Virus record (IMG/VR): IMGVR_UViG_2700989508_000034
Length of the DNA: 33,644 bases
Reading direction: 5' to 3' (one strand)
From: a virus
Lineage: Duplodnaviria > Heunggongvirae > Uroviricota > Caudoviricetes
Position 1 is the stretch's first letter. Every line of letters begins with the position of its first letter. The position numbers and the translations under genes are program-made. Of this stretch, positions 7,063 to 9,085 are shown piece by piece. The notes under the pieces were generated by a model, which was not told the DNA's origin, ran no database searches, and was given only the letters and a program-made list of their open reading frames with translations.

Positions 7063-7116
7063 GTATTTACCTTCCTTAAAAAGAGATGGAAAGGCCTTTT
7101 AAAGCAGATATACGGC

Positions 7117-7142
7117 ATCCCTGAAACCTCGGTTTACGGGAT
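7117..7142. other. gix-like inversion crossover site (12-2-12), gin-proximal
   Basis: ATCCCTGAAACC-TC-GGTTTACGGGAT; half-sites are inverted repeats with 2 mismatches; resembles gix/hix consensus (AAACC-NN-GGTTT core). Confidence 0.7.
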
Positions 7143-7496
7143 ACTGTAAACAGGGCCGCGAATGCCCTGCCATCAAACGGTACGGCTGTTGCAGCAAGCA
7201 GGCTGGCAAATGCCCGCAGAATCAATGGTGTCGCCTTTGACGGCACGCAGGATATAAACATTACGTCAGGAATGCCGGAATCAACGGCCAATCAGCGTTA
7301 TGTTACAGGGGTAAGACTGGGAGCGCAGGCATTAAGCGGCGGACTGGAATATAATTACTCCCTGTCATCAGGAAATGTGATTACCGGTTTTAAGACTAAC
7401 GGAGACTGGGAAATGCGTGGTGGTGATGACCGTGTTTATTACAGACAGATACAATATTGTATTAATGGGCATTGGGTATCCGCTGCAAGTATTTAA
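7125..7496 (+). CDS. Alternative tail-fibre C-terminal segment (S'v-like), promoterless and without start; would be fused to the fibre N-terminus after inversion
   Basis: Open frame starts right after a stop at 7122-7124 inside the gix site; encodes ...TVNRAANALPSNGTAVAASRLANARRINGVAFDGTQDINITSGMPESTANQRYVTGVRLGAQ..., paralogous to residues ~182-303 of the fibre at 8174..9085. Confidence 0.7.
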   Translation, partial: NLGLRDTVNRAANALPSNGTAVAASRLANARRINGVAFDGTQDINITSGMPESTANQRYVTGVRLGAQALSGGLEYNYSLSSGNVITGFKTNGDWEMRGGDDRVYYRQIQYCINGHWVSAASI

Positions 7497-7617
7497 TTAA
7501 CGGGGGCATAGCACACAGCAGCCAGCATCTGAAATATGCGTTATTTCAGACAAGCATTGCCTGTATATGGCGATAGTATTATTCCTGTTTTTATCATTGA
7601 TTTACATGGTGATGTTT

Positions 7618-8139
7618 ATGCAACTGATTAATGTCAAACGATATTACCCGAAACACAAACCCTATGGTGAGGATGTTCAGTATTTCCAGAGTGAGGACGG
7701 AAGGGATTTTTATGAATCTATCCCGCTTTTCACAAAGAAATACAAACTCTGTATTTCGCCTGTAACGGGTATTATCTGCTCTGTTGCTGAAGATGTCTCT
7801 GCTTTATATCCGGCAGGTTTTACTGTTGTTGAAGTGGACGAACTGCCGGAAGGTGTGAATATTGACGGTAACTGGCAGTTTTCTGATGGCCTGATATCAA
7901 AGGTGCCGGTAAACTGGAAGACGGTTGCTGAAAAGCGTCGCTCATCGCTGCTCCAGGAAGCCAACGAAACCGTGGATGACTGGAAAACAGAATTAAAACT
8001 GGACATGATTAGCGATGAAAATAAATTACAGCTGACGCGCTGGATGGCGTATATCCGACAGCTTAAAGAAATGCACTTTAATGATATTGCCAGTGAGGGG
8101 CATTACCAGGCGATTCCCTGGCCGGAAAAACCGGAATAA
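7618..8139 (+). CDS. Tail fibre assembly protein (Tfa; Mu U / P2 G family); alternative upstream starts at 7567/7606/7612
   Basis: MQLINVKRYYPKHKPYGEDVQYFQSEDG...GFTVVEVDELPEG...QLTRWMAYIRQLKEM..WPEKPE resembles P2 G/Tfa proteins; lies immediately after the S'v segment on the same strand. Confidence 0.8.
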   Translation: MQLINVKRYYPKHKPYGEDVQYFQSEDGRDFYESIPLFTKKYKLCISPVTGIICSVAEDVSALYPAGFTVVEVDELPEGVNIDGNWQFSDGLISKVPVNWKTVAEKRRSSLLQEANETVDDWKTELKLDMISDENKLQLTRWMAYIRQLKEMHFNDIASEGHYQAIPWPEKPE

Positions 8140-8173
8140 TTCAGAGGGTGCATTCAGCACCCTTTTCTGTGGT

Positions 8174-9085
8174 TTACACTGAACTTACCGTTCTCCAGGC
8201 ATTATTAATATAAATCTGAACCGGGCGATAATAGACCCCACCGATATTGTCCGCAGACCGGGAGCCGGTTTCCTGCACGTTAATACCGGAAAGCATACAA
8301 CCGGAAGGTGCGCTGTAATTCCATGATATTTCATTGCCTCCGGGTGAATGATAGCTCTGTGCTCCAAGCTGAACATTCTGTACATACCGGCCATCTGCGG
8401 TTGACTGCGTCATTCCTGACGTGATGTTGATATCCTGCGTTCCGTCAAAAGGAACGCCATTAATATTTCTTGGGGTGGCGAGTCTGTTTGCTGCCACGGC
8501 GGTTCCACCCGATGGCAGGGCATCAGCAGCCTTATTTACCGTTTCCCGTAAACCGACGTTATCGATAAAAGCGCCTTTATCCGGAATGTCTGCGCCGTTC
8601 TGCTCCCTGCGCAGGTAACGGTTATCACCTTCGCTTTTGCTGTAAACATCCAGATTATTACGGGCGGTTCCCGCATTCTCCAGGTCGGCAAGGTTCTGAT
8701 CCTTCGCCAGAGCATTAACGTCACCGGGACCAAGACTGTTTTTTGTGGCAAGCGCCCCAAGACCAAGATAACCACGGGCAAGACGCTGGGCTTCCGCACC
8801 GGCATCAGCAATTTCTTTCAGGTTGTTTTTCCGGGAAAAGGCATTCGCAGCGATAATGGCTTTAATGGACAGCGTAAGCTGGTTTAACTGCGCCTTATCC
8901 GGCTGAATACTGGCTTCAGCCAGAATATTCAGCAGTTCGGCCTGGAGAATATTCAGCCAGTCCTGACCAATCCAGCTGATACCTTTTTGTCCGTCACCTT
9001 CGGTAAACCAGGTGGTGGTATTACTCTGCGCCGGTGCCAGCGCAGGCATATTCGCCACGCCGGAATTATTATCAACATGAAACAT
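8174..9085 (-). CDS. Tail fibre protein (Mu S-like); constant N-terminal part plus currently joined variable C-terminus
   Basis: N-terminus MFHVDNNSG...FTEG...ANAF resembles Mu S; a gix site lies inside the gene at residues ~173-181; C-terminus paralogous to the plus-strand segment 7125..7496. Confidence 0.85.
   Translation of the reverse strand: MFHVDNNSGVANMPALAPAQSNTTTWFTEGDGQKGISWIGQDWLNILQAELLNILAEASIQPDKAQLNQLTLSIKAIIAANAFSRKNNLKEIADAGAEAQRLARGYLGLGALATKNSLGPGDVNALAKDQNLADLENAGTARNNLDVYSKSEGDNRYLRREQNGADIPDKGAFIDNVGLRETVNKAADALPSGGTAVAANRLATPRNINGVPFDGTQDINITSGMTQSTADGRYVQNVQLGAQSYHSPGGNEISWNYSAPSGCMLSGINVQETGSRSADNIGGVYYRPVQIYINNAWRTVSSV
8543..8568. other. gix-like inversion crossover site inside the tail-fibre gene
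   Basis: Minus strand TTATCGATAACG-TC-GGTTTACGGGAA; shares the TCGGTTTACGGGA core with the 7117-7142 site in inverted orientation. Confidence 0.65.

Follow-up and report, generated by a model that had tools for sequence, protein, structure and literature searches.

A Gin/gix switch that exchanges the tail-fibre tip of an Sp18-type Mu-like prophage around a single tail-fibre assembly gene

The G segment of phage Mu (also of D108 and SfMu) is about 3 kb long and carries Sv-U and U'-S'v, that is, one tail-fibre assembly gene (tfa) per tip, placed 2-5 nt behind it. The 33.6-kb window analysed here, by which we mean the whole stretch of viral DNA, holds an invertible segment with two tips and one tfa, and this tfa follows the tip that is silent in the present orientation (Table 1). 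How, then, is the fibre of the present orientation assembled? The initial annotation had rightly set the two assembly genes of Mu and P1-type segments against the one found here.

Table 1. Features of the invertible segment and its neighbours, with positions in the window.
Feature	Position	Strand	Basis or remark
gin-like serine DNA invertase, 186 aa	6502..7062	-	Pfam Resolvase 1.4e-51, HTH_7 1.7e-14
gin-proximal gix, 12-2-12, core TC at 7129-7130	7117..7142		sequence read
Silent tip Sv', tfa-linked, Mu S-like 'GDWEM' class	7125..7496	+	frame open from 7125
A+T-rich untranslated spacer Sv'-tfa, 121 nt	7497..7617	+	gap between Sv' and tfa
tfa, single tail-fibre assembly gene, 173 aa	7618..8139	+	Caudo_TAP E 1.9e-18; Mu U (5yvq_B) E 1.1e-15
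G+C-rich hairpin flanked by the convergent tfa and orphan-tip stops	8143..8165		terminator scan
Fibre gene, 303 aa	8174..9085	-	residues 1-198 similar to Mu S (5yvq_A), E 1.3e-48
Joined tip Sv, orphan (no downstream tfa), 'SADNIGGVYYRP' class	8174..8556	-	part of the 303-aa ORF
Inverted-repeat arm (partner 7125-7303)	8382..8560		N-terminal block of both tips; repeat search
Sc-proximal gix, core GA at 8555-8556 (TC on the other strand)	8543..8568		sequence read
Constant part Sc, about 177 codons	8557..9085	-	last gene of the baseplate/fibre late operon

We conclude, with little room for doubt, that this Sp18-type Mu-like prophage of Shiga-toxin-type E. coli (STEC) has a working Gin/gix switch exchanging its tail-fibre tip. 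The locus matches STEC chromosomes at 100% identity, is surrounded by Mu-type marker genes (Pfam MuB C-terminal domain, Mor, Gp27, Baseplate_J, Gp48 and Mom), and has related copies that are annotated as a Mu-like phage inserted in Stx phages. As in Mu, the segment closes the baseplate/fibre late operon and lies directly upstream of gin, with a homologous Sc (E 1e-48) whose in-frame 3' ends are exchanged by inversion; gp48-like (9085-9645) and Baseplate_J (9636-10721) genes precede Sc. The segment is a short version of the Mu G segment, being 1.43 kb in length with tips of about 125 aa and a fibre of 303 aa versus 504 aa in Mu. It further differs from Mu in its one Rac/186-type tfa behind a 121-nt spacer, and in extra genes (DUF6645/SASA esterase, DUF1378 and DUF826) between gin and mom. 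An invertase beside the fibre gene, intragenic crossover sites and alternative 3' ends are also known from P1 (Cin), p15B (Min) and e14 (Pin).

The invertase gene adjoins the segment, and its product, a small serine recombinase of the Gin subfamily, shares 76% identity with Mu Gin over 181 aa and retains the N-terminal RVSTNDQ serine motif. The initial annotation had described two inverted 12-2-12 gix-like sites bounding a segment of ~1.43 kb beside gin, a joined fibre tip on the minus strand, a promoterless alternative tip starting from gix on the plus strand, and a single tfa; every element lies where it had been placed, and the reading frames agree. The gin-proximal site reads ATCCCTGAAACC TC GGTTTACGGGAT and the reverse complement of the Sc-proximal site reads TTATCGATAACG TC GGTTTACGGGAA, the two having the core dinucleotide and the entire inner half in common. 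Compared with Mu, 19 of 26 bases of the gin-side site equal gixR and 22 of 26 bases of the Sc-side site equal gixL, and both sites coincide with those of Mu in their codon position within the fibre gene. The 13-mer TCCCGTAAACCGA occurs in the window only at 7129-7141 (minus strand) and 8544-8556 (plus strand), even with two mismatches allowed, although this count is weak by itself, with at least two matches also in 18 of 100 shuffles. The inverted repeat extends over 179 nt with 74% complementarity because the N-terminal block is common to both tips.

With the gix sites inside the fibre gene, inversion places one or the other 3' end in frame behind the constant 5' part. Residues 1-198 of the present fibre correspond to Mu S 1-191 (E 3e-43) and residues 228-302 to Mu S 434-503, and the ~240-aa middle of Mu S is missing. 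The silent tip is promoterless and has no start codon before 7272. The two tips, which had been described as roughly half identical with a conserved block, show 54% identity over 127 aa and have FDGTQDINITSGM in common. The dN/dS values are 0.08-0.11 for the orphan tip (dS up to 1.4), 0.17-0.25 for the linked tip and 0.11-0.15 for Sc, so the constraint on the orphan tip is comparable to that on the constant part of the fibre. Since both tips are under purifying selection, we infer that both are in use.

In-silico inversion of 7129-8556 yields an in-frame 298-aa fibre followed by tfa, in keeping with the earlier view that tfa is positioned behind the alternative tip only. This predicted flipped form is seen in public genomes with base-exact breakpoints, including OkiPb01712, which implies that the segment is more than a chance pattern. 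The sole difference between two Okinawa cattle isolates, OkiPb01678 and OkiPb01712, is an exact reverse complement of window positions 7142-8543. Their flanks of 2,242 and 2,157 nt are identical and the 1,402 nt between them are exact reverse complements with 0 mismatches, the breakpoints falling inside the 13-mer common to the gix sites (within 7129-7141 and 8544-8556). Such natural flips imply a competent inversion system; in segments of this kind a Fis-dependent recombinational enhancer lies in the 5' part of the invertase gene, where its signal would be confounded with coding conservation. Both orientations, for which the initial annotation had called, are also present among IMG/VR contigs and among complete E. 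coli genomes, about 183 of which are oriented as in the window versus 26 flipped (each genome with at least 80% coverage in one piece), and both the 303-aa and the 298-aa fibres are annotated among RefSeq genomes. Late genes are silent in lysogens, and the orientation majority among lysogens is therefore under no selection.

The product of the lone tfa is, by homology, a tail fibre assembly protein: it scores 67.3 bits against Caudo_TAP PF02413 (cut-off 22.1), and is 51% identical to the Tfa of Rac-SA53, its closest characterised relative, and about 30% identical to Mu U/U'. A second tfa outside the segment, which would have overturned the earlier description, was sought by tblastn with the phage's own Tfa and Mu U, and none was found within the 33.6-kb window (next best E 0.16). 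An antisense chaperone opposite tfa, 3' of the orphan tip, was also considered and rejected, the 130-codon frame of the window having at most 67 codons in the variants. The tight coupling of one tfa to each tip, which characterises Mu/P1-type segments, is thus absent from the window. The gap between fibre and tfa ranges from -4 to +20 nt in Mu, SfMu, Fels-2, SEN8 and about 17 IMG/VR two-tfa clusters, and from 43 to 121 nt in all Sp18-like variants.

According to the gene order, late operon transcription covers tfa only with the segment flipped. Sigma-70 promoter matches 5' of tfa on its own strand are at chance level, likewise in L003, L031, L041 and L073, and the candidate late-promoter box TCCGCAAARCCYGCC, a motif common to the regions upstream of lys and I, was not found upstream of tfa. 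The search of the spacer for an RNA element gave no Rfam match, and its fold (z-score -0.95) is not better than those of shuffles. The end of Sv' and the 3' spacer are near-invariant in four variants; regulatory constraint was rejected as the explanation, because the near-invariance stems from a recently shared mosaic block reaching from gin to the tfa start. The hairpin beyond tfa is terminator-like on the plus strand, and its minus-strand fold has -16.6 kcal/mol (z -2.2). A hairpin of other sequence occupies the same position in the O91-type and L031-type variants.

The initial annotation had presented the one-tfa layout as a departure from Mu and P1, which is true, but the layout recurs at other loci and is common in the sequence databases, accounting for 30 of the 51 Gin-linked loci surveyed in IMG/VR and for 9 of 28 Tfa clusters (Caudo_TAP-like genes only being counted), and passages of PMC2669165 had already brought the locus type, Sp18, into the literature. 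One of the examples, L078, possibly has a small unrelated ORF 3' of its orphan tip. Cassettes in which tips outnumber tfa genes are seen repeatedly in unrelated lineages, and the multi-site IMG/VR cassettes L041 and L073 have three tips and one tfa. The lone tfa lies 43-121 nt from the upstream tip in 3 of 7 independent one-tfa lineages, versus 0 of ~20 two-tfa segments; there is no spacer in the one-tfa lineages L050, L054, L078 and L083. The P2-like Fels-2 and SEN8 also have segments with Gin-family invertases, but these carry two convergent tfa genes.

Within the Sp18-like group, the single-tfa layout is retained in all diverged variants despite exchanged Sc, tfa and linked tip, and the orphan tip is invariably of the 'SADN' class in the two sub-lineages. 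Tfa-A stands behind linked tip B or C; Tfa-B stands behind linked tip B or E and is accompanied by orphan tip A or D. To test specificity, we looked for co-variation of tips and Tfa among the variants and found none, because the modules are freely shuffled. In the Sakai-type Sp18 locus (L003, O157:H7 Sakai), Gin and Sc are identical to those of the window, and identity is 98% for the orphan tip and 99% for Tfa; the tfa-linked tip is of another type (56% identical), and the spacer is shorter, at 79 nt by RefSeq annotation. Passages of PMC2669165 describe Sp18 as intact and efficiently packaged, and its invertible host-specificity region as distinct from that of Mu and scored atypical; no mention of the single tfa was found in the passages on this region, and our literature search found no paper discussing it. 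A published Mu-type inversion confirmed by long reads (CP066032) is of the classical two-tfa type.

Gin recombines the two inverted gix sites inside the fibre gene, joining Sc (177 codons) either to Sv, which gives the present 303-aa fibre, or to Sv', which gives the 298-aa fibre, and the late operon reads tfa only when Sv' is joined. For the assembly of both fibres, we propose that the lone Tfa acts as a Rac/186-type generalist on either tip. With the segment oriented as at present, tfa would be expressed from a signal of its own, carried in the unusual untranslated spacer upstream of it, and the hairpin separating tfa from Sv would terminate both convergent transcripts. That one generalist Tfa may serve both tips is the reading we favour, albeit tentatively.

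Several comparisons are consistent with a shared Tfa. Over its last 70-77 aa the orphan tip shares 60-70% identity with the SfMu S' and Rac-SA53 tips, which are tfa-linked, and in the tfa-carrying relatives examined (one each from a P2-like phage, SfMu S' and Rac-SA53) a tfa lies 1-4 nt downstream; the orphan tip may need a Tfa as well. In the side tail fibre of Rac-SA53, a tip with 65-70% identity to the orphan tip is followed by the Tfa that is the closest characterised relative of ours; there, tfa lies 2 nt behind its tip and on the same strand, and no invertase is present. The N-terminal domain of Tfa is described as the fibre-binding domain (PMC9608196), and in an alignment of the Tfa types it seems to be more conserved than the C-terminal half. 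The free combination of Tfa types with tips and the 43-121-nt gaps before the lone tfa point in the same direction. On the other hand, no recognisable promoter precedes tfa on its own strand, four one-tfa lineages have no spacer, and a tfa transcript made in the present orientation would run into the late transcript.

It is also conceivable, although we regard it as doubtful, that folding and trimerisation of the orphan tip require no Tfa, which would then matter only in the flipped state. In Mu, Tfa remains attached to the fibre end, and the switch would on this account toggle the presence of Tfa together with the tip. The gene order is most simply read in this way, and the account accords with the undetectable tfa promoter and with the recurrence of tfa-poor cassettes (L041, L073 and the 9 of 28 Tfa clusters); the constant 'SADN' class could reflect a class that has turned self-sufficient. 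However, the tfa-carrying relatives examined (SfMu S' and Rac-SA53 at 60-70%, P2-like gpH lower) have a tfa immediately downstream, and P2-type tips need gpG, as is known from the P2 and R-pyocin retargeting literature. Moreover, the orphan tip lacks any domain beyond those of the linked tip, and the two folds can be aligned end to end.

The initial annotation had offered only two answers, folding without Tfa or a non-functional orientation, thereby missing the shared Tfa, and the second of them fares poorly. Mu, SfMu, Fels-2 and SEN8 each have two convergent tfa genes, which makes deletion of a second tfa a plausible origin of the present layout, and with neither a cis tfa nor a promoter detectable, the present orientation could be a dead or weak state, with only the flipped state infectious. 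Such a dead orientation is nevertheless unlikely because the orphan tip is under purifying selection: it is intact in every variant, and its dN/dS is about 0.1 at dS up to 1.4. The layout has also stayed stable through the exchange of Sc, tfa and the linked tip among the variants, and the majority of sequenced lysogens are in the present orientation, though unselected there. STEC strains contain many lambdoid prophages with related tfa genes, and the lone Tfa belongs to the lambdoid Rac type too, so that the orphan tip might borrow Tfa from other prophages in the same cell. Complementation of morphogenesis between prophages is documented for O157 Sakai in passages of PMC2669165, yet the same source reports that the Mu-like Sp18 is not co-induced with the lambdoid prophages by mitomycin C. 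Borrowing would also be unreliable after transfer to new hosts, and we consider it unlikely.

Taken together, it is somewhat probable that a tip class which elsewhere has its own tfa is assembled without a cis tfa here and in many Gin cassettes. Under such assembly, either the tip is Tfa-independent, or the tfa is a generalist with an orientation-independent signal. If either route is true, 'one tip, one chaperone' is no rule for invertible fibre cassettes: a Tfa-independent tip would mean that naked and Tfa-capped fibres are toggled, and a generalist tfa with such a signal would serve two or three tips. Retargeting of phages and tailocins swaps tips along with their Tfa partners, and the need for the cognate chaperone is a practical limit; tips free of a cis chaperone, or a chaperone for several tips, would ease this limit and would alter how host-range cassettes are interpreted in genomes. 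The switch is relevant to STEC, as Mu-like prophages are mobile and inserted in Stx phages, and the switch sets host range. Automated annotation records the silent tip as a truncated pseudogene or a hypothetical protein, and such switches are thereby hidden.

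The Gin-invertible segment is real and active. Inverting 7129-8556 in silico gives the expected flipped form, in which tfa comes after a fibre ORF of 298 aa that stays in frame; a search of complete E. coli genomes recovered this form in one piece in 26 of them. Two Okinawa cattle isolates have identical flanks of 2,242 and 2,157 nt; the intervening 1,402 nt are exact reverse complements (0 mismatches), with breakpoints within the 13-mer common to both gix (Gin crossover) sites. Both orientations also occur among IMG/VR contigs of the same type. The inversion proposed in the initial annotation is thus found between natural isolates, and the predicted second orientation exists in genomes and contigs alike. 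The present arrangement, with the constant fibre part (Sc) joined to a tip lacking a downstream tfa (the orphan tip), is found at ≥80% coverage in 183 complete E. coli genomes; the 183:26 ratio may come from clonal sampling.

The window is an Sp18-type, Mu-like prophage (Table). Over 6400-9200 it is 100% identical to several STEC chromosomes, and related copies within Stx phages carry the annotation of an inserted Mu-like phage. Further along lie Pfam matches to MuB, Mor, lysozyme and Gp27. The gix sites occupy the same fibre-gene codons as in Mu, matching gixR at 19/26 bases (7117-7142) and gixL at 22/26 (8543-8568); the two agree in the core dinucleotide and throughout the inner half. Their 13-mer appears nowhere else in the window with up to 2 mismatches allowed, a count that alone is not significant against shuffles. 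A 179-nt inverted repeat (74%) corresponds to the conserved N-terminal block of both tips. RefSeq places a 61-aa 'hypothetical protein' at 7076-7291 on the minus strand, opposite the silent tip and spanning a gix site, and in flipped genomes labels the silent tip 'phage tail protein, incomplete, missing N-terminus' (silent tips in loci L003-L005); both labels are annotation artefacts produced by the invertibility of the cassette.

Table. Features of the invertible segment and its prophage surroundings
Feature	Position	Strand	Remarks
Mom	2329-3066		Pfam
Gin homologue	6502-7062	-	76% identical to Mu Gin
gix site	7117-7142		12-2-12; inverted relative to the other site
Silent tip frame	7125-7496	+	open, start-less
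Spacer	between silent tip frame and tfa		121 nt
tfa	7618-8139	+	matches Caudo_TAP and Mu U
G+C hairpin	8143-8165		
Fibre ORF	8174-9085	-	303 aa; residues 1-198 match Mu S; last 75 residues match Mu S tip domain
gix site	8543-8568		12-2-12; inverted relative to the other site
Mu Gp48	9085-9645		upstream of fibre gene; Pfam
Baseplate_J	9636-10721		upstream of fibre gene; Pfam

The single tfa is also real. A tblastn search with this Tfa and Mu U across the whole 33.6 kb, which takes in the prophage from the B gene past mom, revealed no second tfa, either in the segment or just outside it, and an open frame on the strand opposite tfa, immediately after the orphan tip, is not conserved among the variants. 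Therefore the fibre expressed in the present orientation has no cis assembly gene, as initially annotated. This layout is not very unusual: when Caudo_TAP genes upstream of a Gin relative were counted in 51 IMG/VR loci in which this stretch spans at least 3.2 kb, one was present in 30, two in 19 and none in 2 (9, 17 and 2 clusters, respectively, at 90% Tfa identity), and the one-tfa clusters contain both orientations. Two of the one-tfa loci, L041 and L073, combine P2-like fibres with three alternative tips; three crossover repeats bound the tips (L041 4158-5886; L073 3812-5903) beside a Gin relative ~75% identical, and the two cassettes resemble small shufflons in which tips outnumber chaperones. 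In another, L078, the orphan tip is followed by a small ORF of a kind that the survey profile would not recognise as a chaperone. Our literature search turned up no comment on the absence of a second tfa, and in a systematic study of programmed inversions long reads confirmed the classical two-tfa Mu-type segment, not the one-tfa type. The locus is a common, little-discussed variant of a well-known system.

How the orphan-tip fibre is assembled can be approached through its relatives, namely P2-like gpH tips (46% over 111 aa up to ~62% over 73 aa) and the SfMu S' and Rac-SA53 fibres (60-70% over the last 70-77 residues). In all three cases examined, one from each group, tfa lies 1-4 nt downstream, implying that this tip class normally has a chaperone; that the orphan tip is independent of Tfa, our second-ranked reading, is rather doubtful. 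We tentatively rank first the reading that one generalist Tfa would serve both tips. The closest characterised relative of the lone Tfa is that of Rac-SA53 (51%; Mu U and U' only ~30%). It sits behind the Rac-SA53 tip, to which the orphan tip is closer than to any other linked tip, so that by pairing the lone Tfa would suit the orphan tip no less well than the tip upstream of it. Tfa and tip types are shuffled without co-variation, and the N-terminal half of Tfa, described as the fibre-binding domain (PMC9608196), looks by eye more conserved than the C-terminal half; together these point to a generalist chaperone.

The initial annotation had also offered a non-functional orientation. The Sp18-like family is a mosaic: the Sakai-type locus has the window's orphan tip and Tfa with a different linked tip, the O91:H21-type has both tips with a Tfa only 64% identical, and L031 has the same Sc, tips ~55% identical, the O91:H21-type Tfa and a Gin 81% identical. 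Every variant compared has one tfa, behind the tip not of the 'SADNIGGVYYRP' class. Across them dN/dS is 0.08-0.11 for the orphan tip (dS up to 1.4), 0.17-0.25 for the linked tip and 0.11-0.15 for Sc, which makes a decaying, unused tip unlikely. Asadulghani et al. describe Sp18 as intact and efficiently packaged, with an invertible host-specificity region that differs from that of Mu, and score its host specificity as atypical (PMC2669165). A dead orientation is thus disfavoured and, ranked third, seems improbable; a Tfa borrowed from other prophages, ranked fourth, is about as improbable.

Expression is the weak link of the shared-Tfa reading. As now oriented, tfa points against the late operon; its upstream region has no conspicuous sigma-70 promoter and lacks the motif common to the regions preceding lys and I. 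The spacer has no Rfam match and no unusual fold, and near-invariant stretches around it, considered as a constrained element, proved part of a recently exchanged block. The distance from the fibre stop to the tfa start is -4 to +20 nt in all two-tfa segments examined (Mu, SfMu, Fels-2, SEN8 and 17 IMG/VR clusters), whereas for the lone tfa it is 43-121 nt (Sp18-like family), 95 nt (L041) and 72 nt (L073). Spaced tfa genes thus occur in 3/7 independent one-tfa lineages versus 0/~20 two-tfa ones (p ~0.01, hand calculation), one comparative hint on lone-tfa expression, although not a rule because four one-tfa lineages lack the spacer.

Several minor observations accompany these results. The motif shared by the regions before lys and I, (T/C)CCGCAAA(A/G)CC(C/T)GCC, lies at 22502-22516 (minus) upstream of the protease/scaffold gene and at 30557-30571 (minus) upstream of the lysozyme gene, and is a candidate late-activator binding box of this phage family. 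Against locus L025, the block from gin to the tfa start is 97-100% identical except for patches at 7163-7242 and 7483-7562 (62-80%); the former falls where the silent tip belongs to the inverted repeat, and might reflect gene conversion between the two tips. The last 68 residues of the orphan tip (8174-8400, minus) align with the C-terminal end of a 554-aa 'short tail fiber' from recent cryo-EM entries (PDB 9cuy_c and 9zd7; E 6e-15), a better match than that to Mu S. In phage 186, whose Tfa (39% identical) ranks next after that of Rac-SA53 among characterised relatives of the window's Tfa, GenBank annotates a 'Mu-like inversion crossover site' inside fibre gene K (L102 1909-1934); 186 has no invertase there, and the site looks like a fossil gix at the boundary of Sc and the tip.

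Immediately after gin, in the place occupied by com-mom in Mu, 4354-6411 (minus) encodes a 685-aa protein with an SASA/SGNH-type carbohydrate acetylesterase domain and DUF6645, which could be a surface-sugar deacetylase for conversion or virion use; small DUF1378 and DUF826 genes follow before mom is reached. Masked bases (N) run from ~31050 to 31100 upstream of a Mor/C-like gene. The left end, 1-2235 (minus), codes for a trimeric autotransporter adhesin of the YadA type and is presumably host DNA beside the prophage end.
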